Below, one piece after another: positions 4,036-57,358 of a DNA stretch of 64,000 nucleotides. How positions within the stretch are numbered: the first letter of the stretch is position 1; the number at the start of each line of letters is the position of its first letter. The notes below the pieces were generated by a model. It was not told where the DNA came from and searched no databases. It saw only the letters and a program-made list of their open reading frames with translations. The position numbers were made by a program, and so were the translations under genes. Origin of the DNA: Candidatus Iainarchaeum sp. (GTDB taxonomy: Archaea; Iainarchaeota; Iainarchaeia; Iainarchaeales; JAZDFD01); contig JAZDFD010000001.1 of the NCBI GenBank assembly GCA_043808155.1, positions 5,501 through 69,500 on the forward strand, written 5' to 3'.

Positions 4036-4705
4036 TGTAATGATTGAGCCTGAATACCCGGGAAATATAGGGCTTATATGCAGGGTAATGAAAAACTTCG
4101 GATTTTCAGAGCTAATTCTTGTGAATCCCCAAATTGACCATCTGTCAGGGGAAGCTTACGCGCGTGCAATGCATGCTTCAGATGTTCTGAAAAAAGCCAA
4201 AATAGTTAGTTCTTTGGAAGAGGCAATTTCAAAAAGTGAATACGCAGTGGCAACAACTGCAAAAATAACTAAAGGACACAAGTTATTCAGAACTCCTTTA
4301 ACAGCAAAAGAATTTGCAGATAAATTTTTAGAAGGTAATGCAAAAGTTGCAATTGTTTTGGGACGAGATTCTACAGGACTTACAAACTCAGAAATCAGAG
4401 CCTGCGATTTTGTTGTTCACATTCCCGCATCAAGACAATACTCTACACTTAATATTTCACATTCTGCAGCAGTTATTCTTTATGAGTTATTTCAGAAAAC
4501 AAGCAAGCGTGAATTTAAAACTGCAGACACTAAAAGCAGAAAATTACTTATTGATAAATTTGAGAAATTCATCAGAAACCAAAGTCACATCAAAAACAGA
4601 AAAAATCTGATGATCGCCTTTAAAGGCCTTGTTTCTCGTGCAATGATAACAGATAAGGAAGCTTCTTCTCTTATGAGTGCTTTTGATGATAAGAGCAACA
4701 AATAA
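4022..4705 (+). CDS. SPOUT-class tRNA/rRNA 2'-O-methyltransferase (TrmJ/TrmH-like)
   Basis: N-terminal IEPEYPGNIGLICRVMKNFG with LILV.P, plus the SPOUT motif NISHSAAVILYE. Confidence 0.7.
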   Translation: MKANIVMIEPEYPGNIGLICRVMKNFGFSELILVNPQIDHLSGEAYARAMHASDVLKKAKIVSSLEEAISKSEYAVATTAKITKGHKLFRTPLTAKEFADKFLEGNAKVAIVLGRDSTGLTNSEIRACDFVVHIPASRQYSTLNISHSAAVILYELFQKTSKREFKTADTKSRKLLIDKFEKFIRNQSHIKNRKNLMIAFKGLVSRAMITDKEASSLMSAFDDKSNK

Positions 4706-4808
4706 AAACATAAGCGCAACCCTTACATATGTGCAAACCCATCGCGAGCTAAAGCGAGCGTATGGGTTATAGCTCAAGGATATCGCCTTGGCGAGCTAAA
4801 GCGAGCTA

Positions 4809-4869
4809 GTGTCAGTGCAACTGACACGCGGACTCGCCGGCCGTTCGGCGAGCTCGAGGATATCGCCTT
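4809..4869 (+). repeat. tRNA 5' leader module: hairpin gtgtcagtgcaactgacac plus GC-rich hairpin box actcgccggccgttcggcgag-ctcgaggatatcgcctt, abutting tRNA-Trp
   Basis: The 38 nt at 4832..4869 are identical to the reverse complement of 9675..9712, which abuts tRNA-Pro(TGG). ctcgccg/cggcgag forms a perfect 7-bp stem. Confidence 0.6.
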
Positions 4870-5111
4870 GGGGTCATAGTGTAACCTGGTATCACCACAG
4901 GCTCCAGAATTTTTATTTTTGGAGGCGGAGGGCATGTATTGTGCCCAATGACGAATAACAGGTAGGATGAGTCTGCTTTTGCAGGCAGTGACAAAAAATG
5001 TGAGTGCTTAAAGCACGAACAAGTGTCAGTGAAACTGACACGAATTCGCACGCGGAATTTGCCGCGTAGTGGAGTTACCTGTTAATCTGGGTTCAAATCC
5101 CGGTGACCCCA
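4870..5111 (+). tRNA. tRNA-Trp (anticodon CCA) with a ~169-nt intron at the canonical 37/38 position (about 4908..5076)
   Basis: Manual fold. Acceptor GGGGTCA pairs with TGACCCC, anticodon stem ACAGG pairs with CCTGT, anticodon loop is CTCCAGA, T-arm is CTGGG-TTCAAAT-CCCGG, discriminator A. Intron 3' TGGAG can pair with anticodon-loop CTCCA in a BHB-like arrangement. Confidence 0.8.
4908..5076 (+). ncRNA. tRNA-Trp intron with box C/D sRNA-like motifs
   Basis: C-box-like AATGACGA at 4947 is followed by ATAACAGGT, which is complementary to 3'-exon nucleotides 38-45. GATGAG lies at 4967 and CTGA at 5025. An internal copy of the hairpin plus GC-box module lies at 5014..5076. Confidence 0.4.
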
Positions 5112-5201
5112 CATTTCTTTTTTAGAATATTAATGAGGTATTGAGCGAAATCCGCCAATGGGACATAGAGTGTGCAAAGAACTTTAAGTTAATTGTAATA
5201 T

Positions 5202-6202: not shown

Positions 6203-6763
6203 ATGGCTATTAAGCAGAGAAATATGCTCTCGGAAGCAAGAAATGCTTTTTCAAAAAGTGATGTTTTCAAACTTCGTGAACTGAGCAATGAAGCCGTGAG
6301 GAACGCCTCACTGAATAATGATAAATTTATGGCAGAAATTGCAATTCTGGCTTATGCACTGCACAAACTTTCATCAAAAGAACACATTACAAAAAGCAGA
6401 CAATGGGAAACTATAAAAAAGAATATTCTGCGTTCAATGAGCAAAACAATTTCACTAATGGAATCTGAAAATTTAAAGGAATTCAAACAAAGTCTTAAAG
6501 AAGTAGTTGAGAGCGTAAGTGATGCAGATACTCATTTGGGCTATTTTTCACAGACACTTTACAGTAAAGCGCGGATAAAAGTTGCATCAACAGCTTATTC
6601 CTTAGGCATGTCTTTAAGTCAGGCAGTTGATTTAACAGATGCAGACAAAAGCAGATTACTTTCATATATTGGTGGCACGAGAATTTCAGACGAAGAAGTT
6701 GTCCACTTGGGAATTGCGGAAAGACTTGAAAAATTAAAGAAAGAACTGAGTGATAAGAAATGA
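6203..6763 (+). CDS. Hypothetical protein
   Basis: ORF with a 4-nt overlap to the downstream PIN-like gene. No recognisable motif. Confidence 0.35.
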   Translation: MAIKQRNMLSEARNAFSKSDVFKLRELSNEAVRNASLNNDKFMAEIAILAYALHKLSSKEHITKSRQWETIKKNILRSMSKTISLMESENLKEFKQSLKEVVESVSDADTHLGYFSQTLYSKARIKVASTAYSLGMSLSQAVDLTDADKSRLLSYIGGTRISDEEVVHLGIAERLEKLKKELSDKK

Positions 6764-7428
6764 AATTTATTGTTGATGCAAGTACACTTATTTCAATTTC
6801 TCAAACCTGTTTGATAAAAACTCTTGAAAATTTAAGACAACTGAGTTGTGAATTCGTAATTACCAAAAGCGTGGAATATGAAGCAGTAACACACCCTATG
6901 CAAATAAAACGTTTTGAACTAAATGCTGAAAGAATAAAAAAATCAATTGATGACGGATGGATTGAAATTTTAGAACCGATTGCGGAAACTGAGGAAATTG
7001 AAAAAAAAATTGAGTTTCTTGCAAATAATTCTTTTTTCTACAAACAAAAACCAATAAAAATAATTCACAGAGGAGAAATTGAAACTCTTGCATTGCTTAA
7101 GACTAGACAAGCAGATGCACTTGTTATTGATGAAAGAACTGCAAGAATGCTTATTGAAAATCCCGAGGCAATGAGAAAAACCATTCAAAGAAGAAAAGGT
7201 CTGATTATCAATAAAAATGAGAAAAATATTTCTGAATTAAAATCAATGTTTGAAGATGTAAGCATTTTGAGATCAACTGAATTAGTTGCGTTTGCATTTG
7301 AAAATGGTCTGCTTAAAGATGAAATTGGGGATACTAAACAGTCACTTGAGGCTGCACTCTACGCAGTGAAATACGCAGGCTGTGCTGTTTCGGGTTTTGA
7401 AATTGAACAGTTTCTGAAGGGAAAATAA
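6760..7428 (+). CDS. PIN-domain protein (PIN_5-like; possible HARP-type nuclease)
   Basis: N-terminal MKFIVDASTLISI (acidic D in strand 1) and a later ADALVIDERTARML segment match the PIN acidic-residue pattern. Confidence 0.45.
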   Translation: MKFIVDASTLISISQTCLIKTLENLRQLSCEFVITKSVEYEAVTHPMQIKRFELNAERIKKSIDDGWIEILEPIAETEEIEKKIEFLANNSFFYKQKPIKIIHRGEIETLALLKTRQADALVIDERTARMLIENPEAMRKTIQRRKGLIINKNEKNISELKSMFEDVSILRSTELVAFAFENGLLKDEIGDTKQSLEAALYAVKYAGCAVSGFEIEQFLKGK

Positions 7429-9376: not shown

Positions 9377-9441
9377 AATATTACCGCACTATCGCACAGC
9401 AATAGTGCACATACAGATCTCCACCAGATCTCTCCGGTGTG
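9377..9441 (+). repeat. Composite two-hairpin repeat, copy 1 (aatattaccg - hairpin - cacatac - palindromic agatctccaccagatct)
   Basis: Flanks are conserved with the copies at 9532, 12434, 22653, 22737, 35257 and 40525. The stem is cactat/atagtg. It abuts the tRNA-Pro(GGG) 3' end. Confidence 0.55.
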
Positions 9442-9516
9442 TGGGAGCGCCCGGATTTGAACCGGGGTCGCAAGACCCCCAGCCTTGAATGCTAGACCAG
9501 ACTACACTACGCCCCC
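9442..9516 (-). tRNA. tRNA-Pro (anticodon GGG)
   Basis: Manual fold of the reverse complement. Acceptor GGGGGCG pairs with CGCTCCC, anticodon stem CAAGG pairs with TCTTG, loop CTGGGGG, T-arm CCCGG-TTCAAAT-CCGGG. Confidence 0.85.
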
Positions 9517-9531
9517 TACAAAAAAATTTGA

Positions 9532-9599
9532 CATATTACTGCAGGTTCGAATGAAATGAGAATCTGCACATATTCGTACCCGCCGGACGTGACGGCGAA
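9532..9599 (+). repeat. Composite two-hairpin repeat, copy 2 (catattactg - hairpin caggttc..gaatctg - cacatat - GC box cccgccggacgtgacggcg)
   Basis: Lies between the two tRNA-Pro genes. The stem mismatch is G-U compatible only on the + strand. Confidence 0.55.
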
Positions 9600-9674
9600 T
9601 GGGACCACCCGGATTTGAACCGGAGTCACAAGCTCCCAAAGCTTGAATGCTAGACCAGACTACACCATGGCCCC
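9600..9674 (-). tRNA. tRNA-Pro (anticodon TGG)
   Basis: Acceptor GGGGCCA pairs with TGGTCCC, anticodon stem CAAGC pairs with GCTTG, loop TTTGGGA, T-arm TCCGG-TTCAAAT-CCGGG, discriminator A. Confidence 0.85.
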
Positions 9675-9735
9675 AAGGCGATATCCTCGAGCTCGCCGAA
9701 CGGCCGGCGAGTGCAGGCACCACTTTCAGTGGCGC
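9675..9735 (-). repeat. tRNA 5' leader module upstream of tRNA-Pro(TGG): GC-rich hairpin box plus hairpin
   Basis: The reverse complement of 9675..9712 equals 4832..4869, the tRNA-Trp leader, over 38/38 nt. It is preceded by hairpin gcgccactgaaagtggtgc. Confidence 0.6.
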
Positions 9736-9912
9736 TAGCTCACTACGTTCGCTAAGGCTTAAACCTTCGACATTAAACTCAAGAATTGCTGAAAAAGATT
9801 TGGTTTGATAAGTATTAAAAATAGAACTTTTAATCCAGTGGAACCAATCCCCTTCTTTTCATGTGAATCAAATTAATTAAGTGAGGAAGAATTTAAATAG
9901 TTTTTCATTGTA

Positions 9913-12433: not shown

Positions 12434-12508
12434 AATTATTACCGTGGCATTGAGCAAAACGAAATGCCACACATAAATCGGAGCACCCGTACGAAATCGG
12501 GTAGGTGG
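12434..12508 (+). repeat. Composite two-hairpin repeat, copy 3 (aattattaccg - hairpin tggcatt..aatgcca - cacataa - hairpin cccgtacgaaatcggg)
   Basis: Sits between the lig stop and the alaX start. Same flank and hairpin architecture as the other copies. Confidence 0.5.
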
Positions 12509-14792: not shown

Positions 14793-16139
14793 ATGGGATT
14801 GAAAATGAGCAATGAAAAATTCATGAAAAAACACGCTCTCAAAACAGGGGACATTATTGAAATTAAAACAAAAAATCAGATTCATGAGGGGACGGTTATT
14901 CCCTCAAAAGAAAGTGACTTTATTACTCTGAAACTTAAAAGCGGGTATAATATTTCTGTGAAAATGTCAGATATTTCAAATGTTAAAAAAACAGGTTCAC
15001 AGAAAGTTGGTAAAGGAGAAGCTGTGAAAGTTCAGCAGGATAAATCTCTTCCCAAGATAAGTATTCTTCACACTGGGGGCACAATTGCTGGGCGCGTGGA
15101 TTATAAAACAGGTGCAATACTTTCTGCATTTGAACCTGAAGATTTATTAGGAATGTTTCCTGAGCTTGCAAAAATTGGTTTTTTCCAAACTAAATTAGTT
15201 GGTAATATTCTTTCAGGAAATTTACGATTTAAAAATATTTCAAAAATTGCAAAAGCAGTTGAGAATGAAATTAAAACCCAGAAAAATATTAAGGGAATTA
15301 TAGTTTCACATGGGACAGACACACTAGGATATAGTGCAGCTGCTTTGAGTTTTATGCTTGAAAATTTAAACATTCCTGTAATTTTTGCTGCTGCACAAAG
15401 GTCAAGTGATAGAGGGAGTTCAGATGCAGCAATGAATTTAATTTGTGCTGCAAAGTTTATTGCAGATTCTGAGTTCAAAGGCGTCGGGATTTGCATGCAC
15501 AAAGGAATTTCAGATGACGAATGTTTAATTTTGCCTGCAACTAAATCAAGGAAATTGCACACCTCAAGAAGAGATGCATTCAAAGCAGTTAATTCACTTC
15601 CAATTGCGAGCGTGAATTATAAAGAAAAGAAAATTAAAATTATTGATAAAAATTCATTTGTGAAATTACAGGGCAAGTTTGCAGTTAAATCAAAAATGGA
15701 AGAAAAAGTTGGGATTTTGAAATCGCATCCTAATTTGATGCCGGAACAGATTGATTTTTTCAGAAAAAATAAATACAAGGGACTTGTTATTGAAGGAACC
15801 GGCATGGGTCATATTCCTGTTGGCGGGGATGGAAAAGAAAATGAACTTAATAAAAAAAATCTTGAAGCAGTTAAAAAACTCGTGAACTCAGGATGTGTTG
15901 TTGTTATGACATCACAATGTATTTTCGGAAGAATTAATATGCATGTGTATAGTTATGGTGTTGATTTAATGGGTGCAGGTGTGATTTCTGGTCATGACAT
16001 GTTACCTGAAACTGCATTTGTAAAACTTTCATGGTTGCTGGGGAATTATTCTGTGAAAAAAGTACCTGAATTGATGGAAGACAATTTGAGAAATGAATTA
16101 ATTGAAAGAACACAGGAAAATGAATTTGATTTGGAGTGA
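14793..16139 (+). CDS. gatD: Glutamyl-tRNA(Gln) amidotransferase subunit D
   Basis: Asparaginase-like motif ILHTGGTIAG and an archaeal GatD N-terminal domain. Confidence 0.85.
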   Translation: MGLKMSNEKFMKKHALKTGDIIEIKTKNQIHEGTVIPSKESDFITLKLKSGYNISVKMSDISNVKKTGSQKVGKGEAVKVQQDKSLPKISILHTGGTIAGRVDYKTGAILSAFEPEDLLGMFPELAKIGFFQTKLVGNILSGNLRFKNISKIAKAVENEIKTQKNIKGIIVSHGTDTLGYSAAALSFMLENLNIPVIFAAAQRSSDRGSSDAAMNLICAAKFIADSEFKGVGICMHKGISDDECLILPATKSRKLHTSRRDAFKAVNSLPIASVNYKEKKIKIIDKNSFVKLQGKFAVKSKMEEKVGILKSHPNLMPEQIDFFRKNKYKGLVIEGTGMGHIPVGGDGKENELNKKNLEAVKKLVNSGCVVVMTSQCIFGRINMHVYSYGVDLMGAGVISGHDMLPETAFVKLSWLLGNYSVKKVPELMEDNLRNELIERTQENEFDLE

Positions 16140-16512
16140 GAAAATGTTTGAAATTAGTGAAATTATCGGAATGGTTGGATTAGGGATTTTGCTTTTGGCA
16201 TTTGCACTTAATCATGGCAAACATAAAAAACGATTTAGTTTCACATACAATGGTCTGAATCTTATTGGTTCATTAATGCTTGTTTATTACGCATACACAA
16301 TTAATGCAATTGTTTTCATAATTCTGAATATCACATGGGCATTTATTGCACTCTATTTTATAGTTAAGAAAATCAAAAATCGCGGAAGGATGACAGTTTG
16401 GGAAGGATTTACAGGCGAAGGTGGTTTGAAGTCTGATTTGAGAAAGGACGTTAGAAATCAGGGAATTTTTGATTTTAATGATAAGGATAAATACAGTCCC
16501 TGGTTTAAGTAA
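16102..16512 (+). CDS. Small membrane protein (2-3 TM), hypothetical
   Basis: Hydrophobic helices. Overlaps the gatD end. Confidence 0.35.
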   Translation: MKEHRKMNLIWSEKMFEISEIIGMVGLGILLLAFALNHGKHKKRFSFTYNGLNLIGSLMLVYYAYTINAIVFIILNITWAFIALYFIVKKIKNRGRMTVWEGFTGEGGLKSDLRKDVRNQGIFDFNDKDKYSPWFK

Positions 16513-16558
16513 TTTTGAACCAAAACATTTAAATGGGACAAATGTCCCAATATAAACT

Positions 16559-16756
16559 ATGTCTGCTGATTCCCAAAAAGTGAAAACCATAAAAGCACTC
16601 CTCAACAAAAATCCTCATGGTTTGTGGGTGCGTGAAATTGCTAGAAAAACAAAACTTAGCAAAAGCACAGTAAGCAGATATCTCTACAAATATATGAAAG
16701 ATGATATTGAAGAAGAATGGCTTGGCAGAAATAAAGTTGTAAGGCTGGTGCGATAA
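16559..16756 (+). CDS. Small winged-helix DNA-binding protein
   Basis: HTH-like segment LWVREIARKTKLSKSTVSRYLYK in a 65-aa protein ending immediately before gatE. Confidence 0.45.
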   Translation: MSADSQKVKTIKALLNKNPHGLWVREIARKTKLSKSTVSRYLYKYMKDDIEEEWLGRNKVVRLVR

Positions 16757-18649
16757 ATGGATTACGAAAAAATAGGTTTGAAATGCGGATTGGAAATTCA
16801 CCAACAGCTGGATACTGGAAAACTATTTTGCAGATGTCCTTCAAAATTGAGAGAAGACAAACCTGATTTTAAAGCTGAAAGAAAAATAAGAGCAATTGGT
16901 TCTGAATTGGGAAAGTATGATAAAGCAGCAGTTGACGCCCACTCAAGAAATTACAAATACATTTACGAAGGTTATCAGGATTCAACTTGTTTAGTTGAAT
17001 TAGATGAGGAACCACCTCACTCCGTCAATAAAGATGCATTAGAAACTGTTCTGAAAATTGCACTAATGGTTGATGCAAAAATTTTAGATACCTTATTTGT
17101 AATGAGGAAAGCAGTTGTTGATGGTTCAAACACATCAGGTTTTCAGAGAACAGCATTAGTTTCATTAGAAGGCAAGCTTGACATTGGGGAAAAGAAAATC
17201 GGAGTTTGGAGTATCGCGTTGGAAGAAGATGCTGCAAGAATTATTTCCCGCAATGATGAAAATAAAGAGATTATTTACAGATTGGACAGATTAGGAATTC
17301 CCCTTATTGAATTAGCAACAGCACCAGATATGAAAACACCAGAAGAAGTGAAGAGTGTAGCACTAAAAATTGGTGAGCTTCTGAGAAGAACCTGCAAAGT
17401 GAAAAGAGGTCTTGGAACAATAAGACAGGATTTGAATATTTCTATTAAAGAAGGTGCAAGAATTGAAATTAAAGGTGTGCAGGAACTCGAATTGATTGAT
17501 GAATACGTGAAACGTGAAGTTCGGAGACAGCAAGCACTTTTGGAAATTAAAAATGAATTACTTTCACGTAAAATTTCTGAAAAAGATTTCAAAAATGAAA
17601 TTATTGATTTTACAAAAGTATTTGAAAACACTTCTGCAAAAATGATTTCAAATGCGATTAGCAATGGAAAGCTTGTGAAGGGCATGAAACTTAATGGATT
17701 TTCTGGCTTAGTTGGAAAAGAAGTTCAGGAAGGAAGACGTCTTGGTACGGAATTCGCAAATTATGCAAAAGCGCGTTCTGGTTTGAAGGGTGTTTTCCAT
17801 TCAGATGAAGAACTTTTAAAATACGGAATTTCCGAAAATGAAATGTCAAATGTCCGAAAAAAACTTTCGGTTTCTGAAAAAGATGCATTTGTACTTGTTT
17901 TCGGAACAGAAGATGAATGCAATAAAGCTTTAACTGCGGTTCGGGAACGTGCAAGTTATTGCATTAGCGGAGTACCCGAAGAAACACGAAATGCACTGGC
18001 CGAAGGAAACACAGAATACAGCAGACCACTAGCAGGTGCAGCAAGAATGTATCCTGAAACAGATATTGAAGTTAAAGTAATTGATGCAAAGTATTTGAAT
18101 TCTTTGAAAAGCGCTCTTCCCTTAACAGTTTCAGAGCGTGAAATGCTTTACAAAAAATATGGTTTGAGTAAAAACCTCATTGAGGGAATGAAATTAGACA
18201 ACTGGGCCTGCTTTTTTGAAAATAAAGTGAAAGAAAGTTACAGCGCAACAAGAATTGCCATTCTCCTTCTTGAAGATTTTACAAAATTGAAGCGTGAAGG
18301 AATTGAAACAGAAAACATTTCAGAAAAAATGATTTCAGAATTTTTGAAATCAGAAAAGAATGGAAAATTTACAAAAGAAGTTTCTTTGGATGTTTTAAAA
18401 AAATGGGCTTCTTCTCCTGAAAAATCAATTGATGAAATTATTTCAGCGCTGGAAATTAAAAAAGCAGATAAAAATGAATTAGAAGAGATAATTGAAAAAA
18501 TTATTGCAAAAAATGAAGCACTTGTTAAAGAACAGGGTGAACGTGCAATTGGCGCTTTGATGGGTGATGCTATGAAAGAACTTAAAGGGAAAATCTCTGG
18601 AAAAGAAATTTCAGAAATGCTTAGAAAGAAGATTAGGGAGCGCGTTTAA
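16757..18649 (+). CDS. gatE: Glutamyl-tRNA(Gln) amidotransferase subunit E
   Basis: N-terminal GLKCGLEIHQQLDTGKLFCRCPS, and length and domain order typical of archaeal GatE. Confidence 0.9.
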   Translation: MDYEKIGLKCGLEIHQQLDTGKLFCRCPSKLREDKPDFKAERKIRAIGSELGKYDKAAVDAHSRNYKYIYEGYQDSTCLVELDEEPPHSVNKDALETVLKIALMVDAKILDTLFVMRKAVVDGSNTSGFQRTALVSLEGKLDIGEKKIGVWSIALEEDAARIISRNDENKEIIYRLDRLGIPLIELATAPDMKTPEEVKSVALKIGELLRRTCKVKRGLGTIRQDLNISIKEGARIEIKGVQELELIDEYVKREVRRQQALLEIKNELLSRKISEKDFKNEIIDFTKVFENTSAKMISNAISNGKLVKGMKLNGFSGLVGKEVQEGRRLGTEFANYAKARSGLKGVFHSDEELLKYGISENEMSNVRKKLSVSEKDAFVLVFGTEDECNKALTAVRERASYCISGVPEETRNALAEGNTEYSRPLAGAARMYPETDIEVKVIDAKYLNSLKSALPLTVSEREMLYKKYGLSKNLIEGMKLDNWACFFENKVKESYSATRIAILLLEDFTKLKREGIETENISEKMISEFLKSEKNGKFTKEVSLDVLKKWASSPEKSIDEIISALEIKKADKNELEEIIEKIIAKNEALVKEQGERAIGALMGDAMKELKGKISGKEISEMLRKKIRERV

Positions 18650-22736: not shown

Positions 22737-22804
22737 AATATTACTGCGGGGTTGAAAACCCCGCATATATGTTCACAATCGGAACGCCGATTAGCCCCGA
22801 GGAG
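22737..22804 (+). repeat. Composite two-hairpin repeat, copy 4b (aatattactg - hairpin cggggttgaaaaccccg - catatatg - hairpin atcggaacgccgat), ending in a 13-nt fragment of the tRNA-Gln 3' end (tagccccgaggag)
   Basis: The 13-nt tail at 22792..22804 is identical to 22871..22883 inside tRNA-Gln. The hairpin is near-identical to one inside the tRNA-Arg intron. Confidence 0.55.
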
Positions 22805-22870
22805 TTCCACACATAGGGGCAACTACGTTTCCCCCTATTACCCCCTTCCTTTAATTATTAATAAAAAAGA

Positions 22871-22969: not shown

Positions 22970-24181
22970 TTAGATTACGTATTTAAAGCTTTCTGGACTG
23001 AAAATATTGAACTTAGTTTTGTATTTTTTGATTTTGTTTAAGTTATGTTTTTGAGGGAGGGTAGCGCAGTTGGTAGCGCACGCGACTGATAATCGCGCGG
23101 TCATGGGTTCGAATCCCATTCTTCCCACTATTTTACGTAGAAGTTCATTTTTCTCCACACCGCAGTATTTTTTGCTCTTTTTTGAAATTTTCACACCATC
23201 AACAAAACCACCTAATTTCCAAAAATTTCTTATTGACTTTGAATCATAAATTCTAACACCACAAGCACCTGACCACGAACTTTTGCGCTTTCCAATTTTT
23301 CCATTGAGTCCATATTTCTTAAAAATAGTCTGCCATTGTTTGCACAAATTTGCATTATAGCATCCTAAATTCAATTCTGACTTCTTAGTTTTTGGATAGC
23401 TAATGCAACCATCAGTTGTAAAAGCAAAGCGAATGCACCAACTAAGTGTCTTCTCATCACATTTGTTTAGAAAATCTAGAGTTGGTTGTGGTTCATTTAA
23501 ATATTCGTTAACAGTTTGTCGATGTGCAGGAGATGTTTTGTAATTTGGGCTTAGTTTAAACAATTTCCGAGATAGAGTTGCATCTGTAAGTTTCAGATTA
23601 AACACTCCTTTTTTAGATTTATTAATTGCAGGCACATATCTACTAAGTCTAAGTAAAAGGCTGTTCATAAAATCCCTCAATATCGGATCTTTTGTAGAAT
23701 AAGCTATTCTATTTCTATCCCCACATGCTGAAAGAGAACCATCTGTCATCAGACAAGTTGCAAGAATGCACATTAGATTAACACAATCTTTTTCAAGCAA
23801 AGTTAGTAACTTATTATCAATTTTAATATTAAAGTCACTTTGAAGATTCTTTCTGCTTATGTGCGTTCTTATATATTTAGTATATTCATAAATATTTTCT
23901 ATTTGAGCTATTCTTGCTGAACCGCCTTTTCTTGCACTCCAATTCATAGGTAATTTCTTCCCAATATAGTTCTCAAATTCTTTCAATTCGGGTTGTAAAA
24001 TACATATTTTCTGAAAAACTGAAAAAGTCATGTTGCATTTTTCTTTTAACCAGTCTTTTAATGTCCATCTGCCGAGTTCTAACAATTCCGAGAGTTCTCT
24101 TTGTGGAAGATTTTGTTTCTTGTAAAAAGCCAATAAAAATTCTCGCTGTTTTCCTTTTTTAAATTTCAGCCTAAAGTTCAT
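22970..24181 (-). CDS. Free-standing double-motif LAGLIDADG-family homing endonuclease-like protein; the 3' end of the ORF reads through the antisense of tRNA-Ile
   Basis: Two LAGLIDADG-like motifs ILATCLMTDGSL and IRFAFTTDGCIS lie about 109 aa apart, each with Asp before Gly. An N-terminal HTH-like region is present. The last ~50 codons are the antisense of tRNA-Ile at 23055..23127, so the true C-terminus is uncertain. Confidence 0.5.
   Translation of the reverse strand: MNFRLKFKKGKQREFLLAFYKKQNLPQRELSELLELGRWTLKDWLKEKCNMTFSVFQKICILQPELKEFENYIGKKLPMNWSARKGGSARIAQIENIYEYTKYIRTHISRKNLQSDFNIKIDNKLLTLLEKDCVNLMCILATCLMTDGSLSACGDRNRIAYSTKDPILRDFMNSLLLRLSRYVPAINKSKKGVFNLKLTDATLSRKLFKLSPNYKTSPAHRQTVNEYLNEPQPTLDFLNKCDEKTLSWCIRFAFTTDGCISYPKTKKSELNLGCYNANLCKQWQTIFKKYGLNGKIGKRKSSWSGACGVRIYDSKSIRNFWKLGGFVDGVKISKKSKKYCGVEKNELLRKIVGRMGFEPMTARLSVACATNCATLPQKHNLNKIKKYKTKFNIFSPESFKYVI
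23055..23127 (+). tRNA. tRNA-Ile (anticodon GAT)
   Basis: Acceptor GGGAGGG pairs with TCTTCCC, D-arm GCGC-AGTTGGTA-GCGC, anticodon stem CGCGA pairs with TCGCG, loop CTGATAA, T-arm ATGGG-TTCGAAT-CCCAT. Confidence 0.85.
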
Positions 24182-27346: not shown

Positions 27347-28639
27347 TCAAGGATATAATCTGTTCATTGTTCTTGGATAAGGAATTACATCTTTTATGTG
27401 TTCTAATTTGCATAACCATGTTGTTAATCTTTCAATACCCAAACCAAAACCTGAGTGTTGTATTCCGCCGAATCGTCTCAAATCAACATACCATTGATAT
27501 GGTTTTGGATCAATATTCTGAGATTTCATTCTGCTTAAAATTTCATCCATATTCCAGCATCTTTCACCTGAACCAATTATTTCACCATATCCTTCAGGTG
27601 CTAGAATATCATTACATAAAAGATACTTTGGATTTTCAGGATCAGGTCTGTGATAAAATGGTTTTAGTTTTGCAGGATAATGAGTTACGATAATCGGTGT
27701 TTTGAAATCTTTAGTAATTTCACGCTCTTCTTTTTCTCCTAAATCTGACCCGTGTTTTAACTTTGGAAATTTCTTTTGAGCTTCTTTCAGAATCTCATCA
27801 TAAGTATATCTTGGCCATTTCTTAGTTATGGTGGGTTCTAAATCCTTTGGGTTTCTGCCTAATGCTTTGAGCTCTTTTTCATTATTTTCAATAACTTTTT
27901 TTGCCATGAATTTAACCATCATCTCCTCAAAATCAAGCAGTTCAGATAGCCCCATCCATGCAAATTCACCCTCTGCATGCCAGAATTCTGTCACGTGACG
28001 GCGCGTTCTGCTTTTTTCTGCTCTGAAGGACGGAGCGATAGTATAAACATCTCCATGGGAGAAAATAAAGGTTTCAAGATAGAATTGGGAACTCTGAGTA
28101 AGATATGCTTTTTTGCCGAAATATGGCACTTCAAAGAGTGTTGAACCACCCTCCACAGCACCAGTGACAAACATCGGACCCTGAACTTCAAGTACATTTC
28201 TTTCTTTCATAAACTCCCTGAAAGCCTCAAGAACTGTTGCTTTTACTTTCAAAGCATCAGTCATTTTTGAGGAGCGCATCCAGAGATGTCTTACATCTAA
28301 AATAAATGCTTCACTTAAATCTCTCTGGATTGGAAATTCATCTGCTAAAGAAATTATTTCAATATCATCTGCAACTAATTCAAAACCATTTGGCGCTCGT
28401 TTATCTTCTTTCAAAGTTCCTGAAAGTGAAACACTGGATTCAATTGTTGATTCTTCTGCTTTTTCCCAGATTTCATTTTTTAAATCAGGTTTTGCAAAAA
28501 CACATTGCATTTCATTTGTTGTATCTCGGAGAAGAATGAAAATTTTCTCTCCAAACGCACGTTTTCTTTTAACCCATCCACGTAATTTGAACTTTCCTTT
28601 TTTCTTTTTTAAAGCTTGGTTGATTGTTGTAAATTCCAT
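27347..28639 (-). CDS. asnS: Asparaginyl-tRNA synthetase
   Basis: Class IIb motifs: YLTQSSQFYLE, FRAEKSRTRRHVTEFWHAE (AsnRS-type) and GFGLGIERL. Confidence 0.8.
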   Translation of the reverse strand: MEFTTINQALKKKKGKFKLRGWVKRKRAFGEKIFILLRDTTNEMQCVFAKPDLKNEIWEKAEESTIESSVSLSGTLKEDKRAPNGFELVADDIEIISLADEFPIQRDLSEAFILDVRHLWMRSSKMTDALKVKATVLEAFREFMKERNVLEVQGPMFVTGAVEGGSTLFEVPYFGKKAYLTQSSQFYLETFIFSHGDVYTIAPSFRAEKSRTRRHVTEFWHAEGEFAWMGLSELLDFEEMMVKFMAKKVIENNEKELKALGRNPKDLEPTITKKWPRYTYDEILKEAQKKFPKLKHGSDLGEKEEREITKDFKTPIIVTHYPAKLKPFYHRPDPENPKYLLCNDILAPEGYGEIIGSGERCWNMDEILSRMKSQNIDPKPYQWYVDLRRFGGIQHSGFGLGIERLTTWLCKLEHIKDVIPYPRTMNRLYP

Positions 28640-28647
28640 AATCTCAC

Positions 28648-29964
28648 TTAAGGTAAAATTCTTTCAGTATCTCTTGGGAAGAGAACAACCTCTCTTATGT
28701 TTTCAATATTAAGTAATGTTTTTGTTATTCTTTCAATTCCAATTGCAAAACCGCCGTGCGGTGGAACACCATATTTGAAAAATTTAGTAAACCATTCTAA
28801 ACTTTTTTCTGACATTCCTGATGCATGCAACTGTGAAATGATTTTATCGTATCTGTGTTCACGCTGACCCCCAGAACTTAATTCAGTGCCTCTGAAATTT
28901 AAGTCTACGCTTCTTGCGTAATCTGGTTCATCATCAACACGCATTACATAAAATGGTTTTATTGCAGAGGGGAATCTGTTGAAGAAATAAAATTCTGATT
29001 TGTGTTTTTTCTGCACATATTCCCAGAAAATATTATTTGCTTCTGCATCTAAGTCTTCGCCTCTTTTAATTTTGCATCCTTCTTTTTCTAAAATATTGTA
29101 AATTTCAGGAAATCTGAATTCAGGAAATGGTTTTGTGGGAACGTTTACTTTCACACCAAGTAATTCTAATTCTGCTTTGCAGTCTTTGTTTACTTTTGTC
29201 ATTGCAGAAATAATCAAATCTTCCTGAAGTCTTATTGTGTCAGTTTCATCATTGAGGAACGCCATTTCTGCGGCAACAACTCTGTGTTCTGAGAGATGCT
29301 GAGTTGTGTGTGATTTTTCAGCTCTCCAGCATGGGCCAATATCAAATACTTTTTCAATTCCTGATGCAATTGATAATTGTCTGTGCAACTGCGGGTCCTG
29401 TCTTAAGAATACTTTTTTATCATTGTGATAATTTACTGAAAAAACTTCTGAACCAGATTCAGAAGGTGCACCCATTAAACAGGGAGTGAATACTTGTGTG
29501 AAATCTTGTTTTAGGAGTTCGTCTCTCATTCCTTCAAGAAGTTTTGATTCAATCTTTATTATTGCCTGGTTTTCAGGAGTTCGTAAATCAATACATCTCC
29601 AGTCTAATCTGCTGGGCAATTCTGACTTTATTTTTCCGCTGATGTCAAGAGGTACGGGTGTTTCAGCACGTGCTAGTAATTCAACTTTTGAGGGGATTAA
29701 TTCAACTCCGTTTGGGGCTTGTTTTTCTGCTTTCAATTCTCCAGTGATTATTACTACGCTTTCTTTTGTCAGATTGTTCAATTCTGAGAAAAGTTCTTCA
29801 GATACATTTGCTTTGTGAGCAGTGACTTGTACATAACCAGTTTTGTCCCTTATTTTCACAAACTTCAGTTTCCCAAAATCACGGATTTCAAAGACCCATC
29901 CCGCGATAGTTGCCTTTTTTCCGGCTAATTTCTTGTTTAATTCGTTTGCGTATAGTCTTTTCAC
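28648..29964 (-). CDS. aspS: Aspartyl-tRNA synthetase (archaeal type)
   Basis: N-terminal OB-fold region AGWVFEIRDFGKLKFVKIRD, plus CWRAEKSHTTQHLSEH and C-terminal GGFAIGIERI...VLFPRD. Confidence 0.8.
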   Translation of the reverse strand: MKRLYANELNKKLAGKKATIAGWVFEIRDFGKLKFVKIRDKTGYVQVTAHKANVSEELFSELNNLTKESVVIITGELKAEKQAPNGVELIPSKVELLARAETPVPLDISGKIKSELPSRLDWRCIDLRTPENQAIIKIESKLLEGMRDELLKQDFTQVFTPCLMGAPSESGSEVFSVNYHNDKKVFLRQDPQLHRQLSIASGIEKVFDIGPCWRAEKSHTTQHLSEHRVVAAEMAFLNDETDTIRLQEDLIISAMTKVNKDCKAELELLGVKVNVPTKPFPEFRFPEIYNILEKEGCKIKRGEDLDAEANNIFWEYVQKKHKSEFYFFNRFPSAIKPFYVMRVDDEPDYARSVDLNFRGTELSSGGQREHRYDKIISQLHASGMSEKSLEWFTKFFKYGVPPHGGFAIGIERITKTLLNIENIREVVLFPRDTERILP

Positions 29965-35256: not shown

Positions 35257-35325
35257 ATATATTACCGTGGGATTGAACAAAGTGAAATCCCACATATATT
35301 CGCACTCGCCGGGCGCGACGGCGAA
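35257..35325 (+). repeat. Composite two-hairpin repeat, copy 5 (atatattaccg - hairpin tgggatt..aatccca - catatat - GC box cactcgccgggcgcgacggcg)
   Basis: About 40 nt from the tRNA-Thr 5' end and abutting the glyS stop. Same architecture as the other copies. Confidence 0.55.
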
Positions 35326-36825
35326 TTAAAGCGTTTTGTATTCTGCTTTTCCAATTTTTAATTTCCAGAGAGTTTCAGGGAGTTCCTGAATTTTGATTCT
35401 TTTCTGTTCCATTGAGTCACGCTCACGTAAGGTAACAGTTCCTTTCTCTAAAGTATCATAATCTAAAGTAATTGCATAGGGAGTTCCAATTTCATCAGCA
35501 CGCGCGTATCTTTTGCCTATGCTCCCTTTGTCATCGAAGAAAGCATCAAACTCAAAGTCAGAGAGTTCTTTGTAAAGGCTTTCTGCTTTTTCTTTTAACC
35601 CGTCTTTTTTCACTAATGGGAAAACAGCAACAAAGAAAGGTGCAACTCTTGCAGGGAGTTTCAAATATGTTCTTTCTTCAGGTCCTCGCTTTTCTTTTCT
35701 GAAGCCATGGTCTAAAACAACATATAATGTTCTGTCAATTCCTGCTGAAAGTTCAAAAACATGCGGGATGAATTTTTTTCCGTCTTCATTTACTGAAAGA
35801 TCTTTTTTGCTTTCTTTTGAATGGGATTTTAAATCATAATCTGTTCTGTAATTGCATGCCATTAATTCAATCCAACCCAAATCAGTTTCAACTTCAAAAT
35901 CCCAGGTTTCTTTTGCATAAAATGCTCTTGCTTCTTTTGCCAGTTCTCTGAAACGCATTGCTTTTACTGGGATGCCATATTTTTCAAACAACTGCTGAAC
36001 CCTTGTAATATAATAAGCAACTAATTTTCCTGAAACAATTTTTTTAGAAACTGCGTCTTTGCAGGAGATTGGATTCATTTTTTTCCCGATAAGCATTAAA
36101 TTGATTTTGTAATTTTCAACGTCATCAAAATTTTCAACTTCATTTATTTTATCAGGATTGAAGAAAATCTCTGCTTCGAATTGTCCGATTTCACGTTCTC
36201 TGATTAAACTCTGCCTTGGAGATATTTCATTTCTGAATGAAGTTCCTGCCTGTGCAATCCCAAAAGGCAAATTCAGGCGCATTGTTTTGTAAAGTCTGCT
36301 AAAATCCAAAAAAATACTCTGGCAGGTTTCAGGTCTCAAATAACATGGGTTTTGTCCTGTTGCACCAATTTCAGTTTTCATCATCATATTGAAGCGTTTG
36401 ACTTTTCCTAATACGCCTTTGCATTTTGTACATTTGATATTGTTCTTTTCAATAAGTTCTGTGAACTTTTCATCAGCCATGCTTTCAGGGAGCGATTCTT
36501 TTGTTTTTTCTTCAATCAGTTTATCTGCTCTGAAGTGTGAATGGCATTTTAAGCACTGAACAATAGGGTCATCGAAATTCTCTAAATGACCCGAAGCTTT
36601 GAAAACTGCTTCAGGCATAATCTGAGCTCCGTAAATTTCAAGCATATTTTCTTTCTGCACTAATTCTTTTCTCCAGAGTTCAATTATTTTTCGTCTCAGA
36701 GATTCTCCTACTGGTCCGAAGTCCCAAAAACCAGAAGGTGCATTTGGATAAATGTCTGCTGACGGATAGAAAATTGATCTCCTCAAAGCTAAATTTACGA
36801 TTTCTTCTTGTGGCATTGTTCTCAC
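35326..36825 (-). CDS. glyS: Glycyl-tRNA synthetase (archaeal/eukaryotic dimeric type)
   Basis: N-terminal RRSIFYPSADIYPNAPSGFWDFGPVG, class II motifs and a C-terminal anticodon-binding domain. Confidence 0.9.
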   Translation of the reverse strand: MRTMPQEEIVNLALRRSIFYPSADIYPNAPSGFWDFGPVGESLRRKIIELWRKELVQKENMLEIYGAQIMPEAVFKASGHLENFDDPIVQCLKCHSHFRADKLIEEKTKESLPESMADEKFTELIEKNNIKCTKCKGVLGKVKRFNMMMKTEIGATGQNPCYLRPETCQSIFLDFSRLYKTMRLNLPFGIAQAGTSFRNEISPRQSLIREREIGQFEAEIFFNPDKINEVENFDDVENYKINLMLIGKKMNPISCKDAVSKKIVSGKLVAYYITRVQQLFEKYGIPVKAMRFRELAKEARAFYAKETWDFEVETDLGWIELMACNYRTDYDLKSHSKESKKDLSVNEDGKKFIPHVFELSAGIDRTLYVVLDHGFRKEKRGPEERTYLKLPARVAPFFVAVFPLVKKDGLKEKAESLYKELSDFEFDAFFDDKGSIGKRYARADEIGTPYAITLDYDTLEKGTVTLRERDSMEQKRIKIQELPETLWKLKIGKAEYKTL

Positions 36826-40317: not shown

Positions 40318-40360
40318 GTGCCACTTTAGTGGCACCCGTACTAGCCGGACGTGACGGCGT
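40318..40360 (+). repeat. tRNA 5' leader module upstream of tRNA-Arg: hairpin gtgccactttagtggcac plus GC box ccgtactagccggacgtgacggcgtg
   Basis: Directly abuts the tRNA-Arg 5' end. An orphan near-identical copy lies at 40763..40804. Confidence 0.55.
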
Positions 40361-40501
40361 GGGCCTGTGGCGCAACGGATAGCGCAGCTGCCTCCTAACG
40401 GACAGATCCGTTAACGATCTGTATGTGCGGGGTTTTCAACCCCGCGATAATAATACGTGGGAGCGAGCAGAAGGTTGAGAGTTCGATTCTCTCCGGGCCC
40501 G
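40361..40501 (+). tRNA. tRNA-Arg (anticodon CCT) with ~68-nt intron at 37/38 (about 40398..40465)
   Basis: Acceptor GGGCCTG pairs with CGGGCCC, D-arm GCGC-AACGGATA-GCGC, anticodon stem GCTGC pairs with GCAGA, loop CTCCTA(A), T-arm GAGAG-TTCGATT-CTCTC. Intron 3' GGAG pairs with loop CTCC in a BHB-like arrangement. The intron contains hairpin gcggggttttcaaccccgc. Confidence 0.8.
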
Positions 40502-40524: not shown

Positions 40525-40607
40525 AAATATTACTGCACTGTTGTGCAAAACAATAGTGCACATATCGCACTAGCCGGGCGTTCGGCTTTCGATTCTCTCC
40601 GGGCCCG
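40525..40607 (+). repeat. Composite two-hairpin repeat, copy 6 (aaatattactg - hairpin cactgttg..caatagtg - cacatat - GC box ctagccgggcgttcggc) fused to a 20-nt duplicate of the tRNA-Arg 3' end
   Basis: 40588..40607 (ttcgattctctccgggcccg) is identical to 40482..40501. It is followed by palindromic gcctttttaaaaaaaggc. Confidence 0.6.
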
Positions 40608-40762: not shown

Positions 40763-40804
40763 GTGCCACTGCAAGTGGCACTCGTACTAGCCGGACGTGA
40801 CGGC
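40763..40804 (+). repeat. Orphan tRNA-leader-type module: hairpin gtgccactgcaagtggcac plus GC box tcgtactagccggacgtgacggc, with no tRNA following
   Basis: Near-identical to 40318..40359. It lies downstream of three further perfect 8-9 bp hairpins in 40600..40740. Confidence 0.5.
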
Positions 40805-40875
40805 TTAAGCAAATAACGTCCTGGCAATGTACGATTGACGTAAACCTTAAAAACTAGTTTTTACATATAAATTGT

Positions 40876-56966: not shown

Positions 56967-57358
56967 AAAATCATTAAAAATATAGCACACATTGTGACTT
57001 TTTCAAGCAAATTTTTTCTTTAATCCACAATTAATTCGTATGAAAGCCCTGCTAACCGGAAGCTTTGACCATATTCTTTTAGTAGTAGCAACGCCCCCCC
57101 CTCCCATATTTCAGGCGACGATGATGTTATTGCCCTAATTGCAATAGGCATAACTTAAAAATATTCAAAAATCAACTTTTTAGTTGATTTTTTTTCAACC
57201 GCAGGTATATTAACACTCGAGACAGGGATATAACTGACAAACCCGAACTTGTTCGCCGGTGAGTCCCGATGCACTCCTTCGGGAGTGCATCACCCGTCTA
57301 AAAAAAGACAAAGAGAGTTGGTCGCAGGGAAATTTTCAGGAGCTCCTTTTTTTCTGCG

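Follow-up and report, generated by a model that had tools for sequence, protein, structure and literature searches.

The DNA analysed here is a window of 64,000 nt from Candidatus Iainarchaeum sp. (assembly GCA_043808155.1, contig JAZDFD010000001.1, positions 5,501 to 69,500 of the forward strand); coordinates are those of the window, and + and - denote its strands. The genes of the window fit an archaeon (ATP-dependent DNA ligase, Nop5, fibrillarin, GatD/E, NMD3 and aCPSF-like beta-CASP proteins), and the next closest relatives of its prolyl-tRNA synthetase (ProRS) are DPANN or Woesearchaeota-like metagenome proteins. Two of its seven tRNA genes, those for tRNA-Trp and tRNA-Pro(TGG), are preceded by an identical GC-rich block of 38 nt, ACTCGCCGGCCGTTCGGCGAGCTCGAGGATATCGCCTT, which a preliminary description of this DNA had read as a conserved transcribed leader or processing element maintained by selection. 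The present analysis indicated that the 38-mer is probably the tRNA-facing end of a modular, non-coding, GC-rich family of double-hairpin repeats, which is lineage specific and resembles repetitive extragenic palindromes (REPs) and miniature inverted-repeat transposable elements (MITEs). This repeat is referred to below as the double-hairpin element (DHE).

Two exact copies of the 38-mer were present in the window, at 4832..4869 (+) and 9675..9712 (-), as had been described. No other match with 3 or fewer mismatches was detected in the 64 kb, and the chance expectation was 0 (100 shuffles). Both copies run without a spacer into position +1 of tRNA-Trp or tRNA-Pro(TGG). The plus-strand copy continues directly into GGGGTCATAG, the start of tRNA-Trp(CCA) (4870..5112, +), a gene that is interrupted by a 169-nt intron in the canonical position and that was undetected by default ARAGORN and by Rfam and was seen only with introns allowed in ARAGORN; orthologues with shorter introns were found in the related contigs L121, L179, L180 and L181. 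The tRNA-Pro(TGG) gene (9600..9674, -) carries elements on both flanks. In the Trp copy, the 38-mer consists of a hairpin termed hairpin B (CTCGCCG-GCCGTT-CGGCGAG, 4833-4852), the trinucleotide CTC and a second hairpin of hairpin-B type with an AAGG/CCTT-type stem, which is formed by the last 14 nt (GAGG-ATATCG-CCTT, 4856-4869). In L181, an AAGG/CCTT stem with the canonical loop GGCGTGA lies directly against tRNA-Trp. The short hairpins reported upstream of the two blocks were confirmed at 4809-4827 (GTGTCAGTGCAACTGACAC) and 9717-9735 (-; GCGCCACTGAAAGTGGTGC), as was a related module at tRNA-Arg, where GTGCCAC-TTTA-GTGGCAC followed by CTAGCCGGACGTGACGGCG spans 40318-40359 and a single T precedes +1 of tRNA-Arg(CCT) (40361). 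The low GC content of the surroundings (local GC of 0.32 to 0.39) was likewise as reported. Several further copies had escaped notice: a third occurrence of the tRNA-proximal 18 nt (GCTCAAGGATATCGCCTT, 4772-4789), the trailer of tRNA-Pro(TGG) (9581-9597), which is the reverse complement of the Arg-type hairpin, and hairpins at 35306-35324, 40572-40587 and 40789-40805 and in both tRNA introns.

The window was scanned for GC-rich islands and perfect hairpins, and the resulting sites were aligned side by side. A canonical DHE is ~65 to 75 nt long and consists of (A)ATATTAC, a hairpin A with a covarying stem of 7 to 9 bp and the conserved loop GAGCAAAGCGAA, the linker CAYATWYCGYAC (cut down to NCGNA in some copies) and a hairpin B with a covarying GC stem of 4 to 7 bp and GNCGTGA or GNCGTT as its conserved loop. 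The 64-kb window contained 10 or more copies or fragments, all non-coding, and further copies were found in 7 related contigs. The window sites comprise tRNA leaders, one trailer with its spacer, both tRNA introns and positions after two protein genes. A GCCGG..CGGC hairpin B recurs at seven of them, each beside a tRNA gene. Copies of hairpin-B type were located at 4833-4852, 9581-9597, 9692-9711, 35306-35324, 40344-40358, 40572-40587 and 40789-40805, and variants with other loops were located at 22778-22791 and 5051-5066. A covariance model of the linker and hairpin B, run with filters off, detected no copies beyond these in the 64 kb and none in 21 kb of syntenic DNA in L121.

The Trp leader (4736-4869, +) is made up of two units in tandem. 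Unit 1 (4736..4789, +) comprises hairpin A AACCCAT...ATGGGTT (4736-4768), the linker ATAGCTC and a hairpin-B-type stem-loop, AAGG-ATATCG-CCTT (4776-4789). The distal part of unit 2 (4790..4831, +) comprises GGCGAGCTAAAGCGAGCTAG, which resembles the hairpin-A loop, a short hairpin A (GTGTCAGT-GCA-ACTGACAC, 4809-4827) and the linker GCGGA, and leads into the 38-mer; this distal part is homologous to, but diverged from, 9713-9753 (-) of the Pro(TGG) leader. Unit 2 is bracketed by an 18-nt direct repeat. The copy in the Trp intron (5023..5066, +) has hairpin A GTGTCAGT-GAA-ACTGACAC, the linker GAATTCGCA and hairpin B CGCGG-AATTTG-CCGCG. The same two-unit layout was observed in the Pro(TGG) leader (9675-9768, -), the distal part of which (9713..9768, -) holds a degenerate hairpin-B-type stem-loop (GAAGG-TTTAAG-CCTT, 9754-9768), AGCGAACGTAGTGAGCTAG, hairpin A GCGCCAC-TGAAA-GTGGTGC (9717-9735, including one G.U pair) and the linker CTGCA. 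On the other side of this tRNA, element e (9533..9599, +; ATATTAC, hairpin A TGCAG...CTGCA, linker CATATTCGTAC and hairpin B CGCCG-GACGTGA-CGGCG) abuts the 3' end of the opposite-strand tRNA-Pro(TGG) and occupies most of the spacer to tRNA-Pro(GGG).

At the tRNA-Arg locus, element f (40318..40359, +), with hairpin A GTGCCAC-TTTA-GTGGCAC, the linker CCGTA and hairpin B CTAGCCG-GACGTGA-CGGCG, forms the leader of tRNA-Arg(CCT) (40361..40501, +) and ends 1 nt before +1. The 68-nt intron of this gene carries hairpin A GCGGGGTT-TTC-AACCCCGC (40427-40445, +), which is identical to the hairpin of element c, 18 kb away. Element d (40526-40587, +) immediately precedes 20 nt that duplicate the 3' end of tRNA-Arg exactly (40588-40607, TTCGATTCTCTCCGGGCCCG), and element g (40763..40805, +), a near-duplicate of element f, lies downstream of the locus and 70 nt upstream of a gene for a helix-turn-helix (HTH) protein (40876-41586). 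Element c itself (22737-22791, +) contains AATATTAC, hairpin A TGCGGGGTT-GAA-AACCCCGCA, a linker and hairpin B ATCGG-AACG-CCGAT; it abuts a 17-nt partial and imperfect copy of the tRNA-Gln 3' end (22792-22808), 60 nt downstream of tRNA-Gln. Of the elements that follow protein genes, element b (35261..35325, +) is a canonical DHE that abuts the stop codon of a class II aminoacyl-tRNA synthetase gene (35326-36825, -) and has its AT-rich end towards tRNA-Thr, and element a (12438..12475, +) has only ATTACC and hairpin A (GTGGCATT-GAGCAAAACGA-AATGCCAC) and lies just after the DNA ligase stop codon.

Alignment of these copies demonstrated that the hairpin stems are maintained by compensatory substitutions and that the loops and linker keep their sequence. 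For hairpin B (ten copies with 7-nt loops), 85% of cells were paired and 5 of the 6 stem pairs had changes on both sides, a level of covariation that was reached in 0 of 500 shuffles, and the loop and 5' linker were near-invariant. For hairpin A (seven copies), 100% of cells were paired, both-side changes occurred in 4 of 7 pairs and the loop was conserved. Similar changes were seen between orthologous or paralogous copies: double compensatory substitutions in both hairpins of element e (window, L177 and L178), a G-C to A-T change between the Arg-intron hairpin and its L184 orthologue, and compensatory changes between the distal hairpins of the Trp and Pro(TGG) leaders. Because the stems compensate while the loops and linker stay conserved, both the structure and specific bases appear to be recognized by something. 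The strand asymmetry of G.U versus C.A mismatches was considered as a means of separating selection on RNA from selection on DNA; the cases were too few and pointed both ways.

Conserved loops and linker with covarying stems would also be expected if the elements were host regulatory or architectural DNA sites, bound by a transcription factor or by a protein like gyrase or IHF, the latter having been proposed for bacterial REP/BIME, and insulating or tuning the highly transcribed tRNA genes, with the AT-rich end, (A)ATATTAC or GTAATAT, doubling as the TATA box of a neighbouring gene. The motif GTAATAT is indeed found at -29..-23 of tRNA-Pro(GGG) in both the window and L177, upstream of tRNA-Thr, and upstream of the ProRS gene in L178, and the elements lie at gene ends as REPs do (PMC3733652). 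However, the presence of the elements at orthologous loci of close relatives is patchy, copies in introns and the stacking of units in tandem are hard to reconcile with such sites, and no candidate binding protein was identified. A host-site function is an unlikely account of the family.

Related contigs were located via the proteins that flank the tRNAs. One of them, L121 (ProRS 76% identical, 21 kb syntenic), was without an element at tRNA-Pro, at tRNA-Trp or elsewhere. In L177 (85%), tRNA-Pro(TGG) has an AT-rich leader without the module, and element e is retained in the trailer. In L122 and L123 (87%), a unit AACCCATA..TATGGGTT-ATAGCTCAAGGATATCGCCTT lies against tRNA-Pro(GGG) and a diverged copy lies against tRNA-Pro(TGG), and in L178 (79%), hairpin B is found against tRNA-Pro(GGG) and ...AGCTCAAGGATGTGTGCCTT against tRNA-Pro(TGG). 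Thus, the window, L122 and L178 have a leader module on tRNA-Pro(TGG), which L177 and L121 lack. The unit found at tRNA-Pro(GGG) in L122 and L123 is unit 1 of the Trp leader in the window, and unit 1 is also present in the Trp leader of variant 2 of scaffold L179. Composition of the Trp leader varied from one unit in L180 through two alternative versions in L179 to a large composite in L181. The composite hairpin A of L181, with identical nested hairpins, also precedes tRNA-Arg in L184, a contig from another sample, and L181 has in addition a full canonical DHE between two protein genes (1294-1370). The Trp intron of the window has gained ~50 nt compared to orthologous introns: its hairpin A and a preceding GTGC-TTAAA-GCAC hairpin are missing from the introns of L179, L180, L181 and L121, such that the insert was observed in the window only, among the loci compared. 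These comparisons showed that DHE copies and submodules have spread among loci and that their presence, number and composition vary at orthologous sites, a presence/absence polymorphism of the kind by which MITEs are recognized. As orthologous sites of close relatives differ, the elements must either move or be copied by recombination or gene conversion.

Searches of larger collections returned little beyond this clade. A 19-mer from the block had 52 matches in a metagenome collection, of which 1, contig L123, was a true match; the other 51 were coincidences in coding sequence, where the motif encodes ...LEDIA.... A scan of a genome collection with the 17-mer CTCRAGGATATCGCCTT gave 120 matches, all by chance in unrelated bacteria, as this pattern is too short. 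Three element motifs had only chance matches, in GC-rich or coding DNA, among IMG/VR viral contigs, and no link to a virus was seen. The match of the 19-mer to one other record and the lack of the motifs in viral contigs suggested that the family is confined to a narrow clade.

Two features of the relatives' contigs concerned assembly. Contigs start or stop inside hairpin repeats beside tRNA genes (L178:1, L183:1, L183:3816 and L177:1), and in scaffold L179 a run of N (1970-1981) joins two different versions of one SpoU-tRNA-Trp interval. The DHE repeats thus seem to fragment metagenome assemblies at tRNA loci. With respect to the Trp intron (4908-5076), a C-box-like (A/G)ATGACGA motif at 4947-4954 is retained, and a terminal CTGA is present in L121 and L181; introns of euryarchaeal tRNA-Trp genes carry a box C/D guide RNA, which this motif recalls. 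The size of the intron ranges from ~105 nt in L121 to 169 nt in the window, owing to hairpin insertions.

The perfect identity of the Trp and Pro(TGG) blocks was then compared with the divergence around it. The two leaders are homologous over ~100 nt, including the degenerate first AAGG..CCTT hairpin of the Pro leader, and identity is 38/38 in the proximal part and 36/62 (58%) in the distal part (Fisher P = 6e-7); it extends four bases into the tRNAs, which share GGGG-CAT-GTGTA. Orthologous leaders in relatives diverge by ~10% or more. The Trp leader of L180 differs from the 38-mer at 4 of 38 positions, and that of L179 differs more. Maintenance of the block by selection had been put forward on the grounds that the local genome is roughly one third GC. 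Strong purifying selection predicts the opposite of the observed pattern, in which orthologues differ while paralogous leaders match at 38 of 38 positions, and hence the identity indicates recent conversion or copying and not deep conservation. It is best read as a tract of recent conversion or copying, from -38 to +4, within an older and diverged duplication of ~100 nt. A very recent segmental duplication that also spans the flanks had been named as the finding that would overturn the original proposal; the flanks proved homologous but diverged (36/62), and the resulting mosaic comes close to it.

The location of the copies was strongly biased. The eight hairpin-B copies that are not in tRNA bodies were all found no more than 300 nt from a tRNA, a zone that makes up 20% of the intergenic DNA (P ~2e-6, a generous value, since the copies are clustered). 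Copies in the window occur almost exclusively beside or within tRNA genes, with the hairpin-B end towards the tRNA 5' and 3' ends; this end always faces the tRNA, so that leader copies are sense and trailer copies are inverted. The junction on the hairpin-B side reads CCCA in 4 of 9 window copies (background of 0.26%) and in ~9 of 14 copies overall, and this motif coincides with tRNA ends. Given that the acceptor stem forms an inverted repeat, a tRNA gene reads ...CCCA outward from either end, and a single target preference could explain the inverted arrangement. However, no element occupies three of the CCCA sites at tRNA ends or 40 CCCA sites elsewhere, and therefore CCCA alone is not the target.

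A more specific possibility is that DHEs insert precisely at the future termini of mature tRNAs (0 to 2 nt from +1 or the discriminator base) and into introns, by a mechanism that reads tRNA structure or uses the chemistry of tRNA processing. This could take the form of a hairpin transposase guided by the acceptor stem or of RtcB-type ligation of released hairpin RNAs followed by copying into DNA. We consider such targeting improbable. A related possibility is that the hairpins may have been co-opted such that some tRNAs mature without canonical recognition of the leader by RNase P.

Direct repeats of 17 to 20 nt bracket three of the inserts and enclose 62 to 87 nt. Two of the repeats are partial tRNA 3' ends: the tRNA-Arg 3' end (40482-40501) is duplicated 87 nt downstream of the gene, the copy being followed by CC and the gene by AT, and the tRNA-Gln fragment has been described above. 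Both partial copies abut an element at its hairpin-B end. Integration classically takes place at tRNA 3' ends, and the exact 20-nt copy for Arg, the 17-nt copy for Gln 60 nt downstream of its gene and the 18-nt direct repeat around unit 2 of the Trp leader could be taken as scars of integration, i.e., attachment-site remnants of viruses or plasmids that targeted tRNA genes and have since been deleted. Against such an origin, the DNA enclosed by each of the three pairs of direct repeats is only 62 to 87 nt long, a Pfam search of the window revealed no gene or gene fragment for an integrase, and the motifs are absent from IMG/VR viral contigs. Nor would integration scars account for the covarying hairpins or for the copies found between protein genes, within introns and at 5' ends; this origin appears quite unlikely. 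Two further candidate origins were rejected. The CC after the Arg fragment suggests the CCA of a retro-copied tRNA, but the Gln fragment is unlike it and the intron-containing genes argue against it; and AGCTCAAGGATATCGCC, which is D-arm-like by eye, had no Rfam tRNA match at an E value of ≤1.

If the DHEs are mobile repeats, the question arises of how tRNAs with such leaders are transcribed and processed. A TATA-like box, TTACATATGTGC, was found at 4723..4734 (+), ~20 nt after the SpoU stop codon and ahead of every module of the leader; its position and sequence are conserved in L179, L180 and L181, and it is the putative promoter of tRNA-Trp. A second box, TTTTTAATACTTATC, at 9807..9821 (-), is conserved in L122, L123 and L177 as the putative promoter of tRNA-Pro. 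In L177, where tRNA-Pro(TGG) has no leader module, this box occupies -39..-25 of that gene. The block itself had been judged to be in the wrong position for a promoter, and this was borne out: the position of the sole AT-rich part, GGATAT at -12..-7, cannot be that of an archaeal TATA box ~26 nt from the start, and a promoter reading of the block was rejected given this position and the conserved boxes further upstream. To judge from these boxes, the block is very probably transcribed within a long structured 5' leader, and leaders would have grown from ~5 to 25 nt to ~110 nt through insertion of elements. The transcribed part of the earlier proposal thus stood as a prediction from upstream boxes; its conserved, general processing part did not, since four of the seven window tRNAs are without an abutting hairpin. 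About 15 nt upstream of the tRNA-Pro box, a G-rich dyad-like motif, GAAGGGGATTGGTTCCACTGGA (window ~9835-9855, -), is shared with L122 (~1663-1680) and the element-free L121 (~9692-9710). This motif could be the site of a regulator, and its sequence bears a loose resemblance to archaeal origin-recognition boxes.

Whether every tRNA carries such a leader had been raised as a check. Only 3 of the 7 window tRNAs have a hairpin within 2 nt of +1, and the other four (Pro-GGG, Gln, Ile and Thr) are AT-rich at -1..-5 and lack an abutting hairpin. Orthologues without the block were also found for tRNA-Pro(TGG) in L177 and L121 and for tRNA-Trp in L121. As these window and orthologous tRNAs lack the hairpins, the hairpins are not a general requirement for 5' maturation. 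The leaders matched no Rfam family, with only tRNAs and noise detected at gathering thresholds across the whole window and at an E value of ≤1 for 4700-5150 and 9400-9900. Other readings of the leaders were discarded: the leader hairpins do not form box C/D or K-turn structures, as leaders have no C box (RUGAUGA) and the CTGA in the hairpin-A stem is incidental, and they do not join split tRNAs, as all seven tRNAs are complete genes and the complement of GGATATCGCCTT is absent from the window.

These data bear on the possibility that the hairpins are a processing signal that places an endonuclease (an unusual RNase P, a PIN-domain enzyme or a splicing endonuclease of broad specificity) at tRNA termini. 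Hairpins lie 0 to 2 nt from +1 at several independent tRNAs and genomes and, at several 3' ends, 0 to 2 nt past the discriminator base; eight leaders retain the motif AGCTCAAGG..CCTT|G, the hairpin structure is under selection and RNase P RNA was not detected in the window. However, the four hairpin-free window tRNAs and the hairpin-free orthologues in L121 and L177 are difficult to accommodate, as is the occurrence of the same elements between protein genes, in either orientation, and within introns. Copies in leaders and trailers are reverse complements and hence different RNA sequences. Furthermore, the absence of RNase P RNA from a search of the 64-kb window with Rfam is uninformative for the whole genome and cannot prove a genome-wide lack, and the possibility that the GC-rich intergenic region 56970-57360 hides such an RNA was dismissed for want of an Rfam match.

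A nearby ORF (6760-7428, +) had been described as PIN_5/HARP-like, and its candidacy as the processing enzyme was weakened by the tests of HARP membership. The criteria applied, PF08745 (PIN_5) and TIGR03875, were those of PMC6380272. The ORF and two orthologues had no Pfam match even at an E value of ≤10, the ORF had no TIGR03875 match in NCBIfam and no sequence match to solved structures, HARP structures included, and an AlphaFold2 single-sequence model (pLDDT of 39.9) was too poor for use. In the survey of PMC6380272, HARP is absent from all DPANN genomes surveyed and RNase P ribonucleoprotein (RNP) proteins occur throughout the Archaea. With the neighbouring ORF failing the HARP tests and this distribution of the two enzymes, a processing signal is a doubtful explanation of the hairpins. 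As to the ORF itself, its N-terminal MKFIVDAS and an LVIDE near residue 120 look PIN-like by reading, its orthologues are flagged PF11848 (DUF3368) in a precomputed table of the collection and the order GNAT - ORF 6760-7428 - 186-amino-acid ORF is kept in L121 and L178.

A variant of the processing idea concerns tRNA-Pro(TGG), the hairpin-B sequences of which could pair as a leader-trailer stem, like archaeal rRNA processing stems, and be cut by the splicing endonuclease or a double-strand nuclease. The minimum free energy structure of the 256-nt precursor (RNAfold) pairs 9692-9712 with 9579-9599 over ~19 bp beside the acceptor stem (z = -2.55). This stem, however, has no canonical bulge-helix-bulge, in which a 4-bp helix lies between two 3-nt bulges, and contains 1x1 and 1x2 internal loops and an asymmetric 17-nt insert on the 5' side. 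Moreover, tRNA-Trp and tRNA-Arg are without a complementary trailer, the leader of a tRNA does not complement its own trailer in L177, L178 or L122, and compensatory changes in L178 preserve the local hairpin and break the long-range complementarity. A leader-trailer stem is therefore highly improbable.

The interpretation that we prefer is that of a mobile or copied hairpin repeat. Because the copies occur in both orientations with respect to transcription and the hairpin-B end is always the breakpoint, the factor that recognizes structure and bases would act at the DNA level; it may be a hairpin-recognizing transposase or recombinase or, as with bacterial REPs, a host protein. Leaders, trailers and introns that bear elements would be transcribed from promoters further upstream, and these RNA segments would be removed by ordinary RNase P, RNase Z and splicing endonuclease. 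Leaders, trailers and introns would thereby act as safe harbours for DHEs in a very compact genome.

Several observations weigh against this interpretation. No transposase, integrase or RAYT gene was detected with Pfam among the ~65 ORFs of the window. The DHE has no terminal inverted repeats, its ATATTAC end and hairpin-B end not being inverted copies, and no short target duplication of 2 to 10 bp was seen, while the 17- to 20-nt direct repeats around three inserts are atypical of REPs and MITEs and do not readily fit a standard scheme of transposition. As noted above, CCCA sites stand empty at three tRNA ends and at 40 other positions. The motif AGCTCAAGG..CCTT beside +1 is conserved in sequence among relatives down to 67 to 79% protein identity, which exceeds the needs of a purely selfish element and leaves room for a function. 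The sample covered ~113 kb of the clade, and the tRNA preference is based on 7 tRNA loci of the window and 9 in relatives. Finally, the predicted transcription of the leaders depends on promoter-like boxes.

Other features of the window touch the element-rich loci or tRNA function. An ORF of 403 amino acids (22970-24181, -) has an N-terminal HTH and a LAGLIDADG_3 domain (E = 3.9e-8) and is homing-endonuclease-like. Its last ~70 codons run antisense through tRNA-Ile (23055-23127, +) and the tRNA-Gln/Ile promoter region, and its peptide ...MGFEPMTARLSVACATNCATLP... is tRNA-Ile read backwards. This ORF could be a free-standing relative of homing endonucleases beside tRNA genes or an over-extended ORF call. 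A link between this HTH protein and that encoded at 40876-41586, also at an element-rich tRNA locus, was rejected, as the two are not paralogues. A perfect 10-bp GC-rich hairpin at 57268-57291, GATGCACTCC-TTCG-GGAGTGCATC, is followed by a run of A; it lies within ~390 nt of non-coding DNA (56967-57358) that has a C-rich tract at 57085-57108 and no Rfam match at an E value of ≤1. Genes for two tandem paralogous class II (D/K/N-type) aminoacyl-tRNA synthetases (27347-28639 and 28648-29964, both -) and for the Glu-tRNA amidotransferase subunits GatD and GatE (14793-18649) were also found. The window is rich in genes for translation and tRNA functions in general, including ProRS, an AlaX-like editing domain, a SpoU methylase, Nop5, fibrillarin and NMD3.

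The significance of these results lies first in how the 38-mer is to be read: here, two perfectly matching GC-rich blocks in an AT-rich genome point to recent copying, and there was no evidence of unusual 5' maturation of tRNAs in this DPANN lineage. The habit of the DHE lengthens tRNA leaders from a few nt to ~110 nt, creates partial tRNA duplicates and seems to break assemblies. It is thus relevant to the assembly and annotation of metagenome-assembled genomes and to tRNA gene prediction, the tRNA-Trp gene having been missed by default tools, and also to the survival of selfish DNA in extremely compact genomes inside RNA segments that are always excised. Should the preference for tRNA boundaries reflect true targeting, the Archaea would have an equivalent of the tRNA-targeted transposition of eukaryotes (Ty3 and the Dictyostelium TRE). 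To our knowledge, no archaeal REP-like, structure-conserved family with such behaviour has been described, and a literature search for archaeal palindromic repeats that flank tRNAs found none; the REP survey of PMC3733652 covers bacterial phyla only.

Among known systems, the bacterial REPs and REPINs (PMC3733652) share many features with the DHE: they are GC-rich imperfect palindromes of 20 to 40 nt, extragenic and mostly at gene ends, with covarying stems, conserved loops or tags, copy numbers that vary between close relatives and an arrangement in clusters or dimers. The DHE is likewise a short, GC-rich, imperfect, multi-copy extragenic palindrome. REPs, which have been described in bacteria, bear a tag (GTAG or CGTC), usually occur as inverted doublets of one hairpin and, in the case of GTAG REPs, are linked to a RAYT transposase (PMC3733652). 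In contrast, the DHE has no GTAG or CGTC end tag, CGTC occurring in the hairpin-B loop only, and its conserved unpaired parts are ATATTAC and the linker. It also differs in having two unlike hairpins in tandem, no RAYT in the window and a strong preference for tRNA boundaries. The hairpin MITEs derived from IS200/IS605 (palindrome-associated transposable elements), on the model of IS608-type transposition, may resemble the DHE in their subterminal hairpins, lack of terminal inverted repeats and lack of an obvious short duplication; the ends of the DHE may be similar too, one lying beside a recurrent CCCA and the other having a constant TTAC. Unlike these MITEs, the DHE has no identified Y1 transposase partner, and its target motif is inconstant (9 of ~14 junctions).

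In Nanoarchaeum equitans, also a DPANN archaeon, GC-rich blocks lie against tRNAs as the complementary leader and trailer sequences of split tRNAs (see PMC3491384 for context). Those blocks pair to join tRNA halves in trans, whereas the tRNAs beside DHEs are intact and no tRNA half with a complementary block accompanies the 38-mer. The closest precedents, together with the bacterial REPs, come from fungal mitochondria. The mobile GC clusters of yeast mitochondria and the double-hairpin elements of Allomyces and other fungi (PMC4478555; Paquin et al. 2000, as cited there) are short GC-rich hairpins that spread in an AT-rich compact genome, as the DHE appears to do. Structure-conserving substitutions, merging and shuffling of modules and sites both between genes and in introns are common to these elements and the DHE. 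Yeast GC clusters have a defined AG dinucleotide target, whereas the DHE is joined to tRNA termini without a short target duplication, and there is no sequence relationship. GC-rich palindromes flank tRNA genes in the AT-rich mitochondrial DNA of Neurospora crassa (Yin, Heckman, RajBhandary 1981, Cell 26:325; as cited in PMC4478555). These palindromes and the DHE are alike in being GC-rich and multi-copy in an AT-rich genome and in lying immediately beside tRNA genes. The Neurospora palindromes, known as 'PstI' palindromes, are reportedly highly conserved, present in many copies and were first suspected of being processing signals. The hosts are a fungal mitochondrion and a DPANN archaeon, no sequence relationship exists between the two families, and the DHE is distinguished by two different hairpins with a linker, one defined tRNA-facing end and invasion of tRNA introns. 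Overall, the DHE family shares the logic of known hairpin repeats and not their sequence, tags or known mobilizing enzymes.

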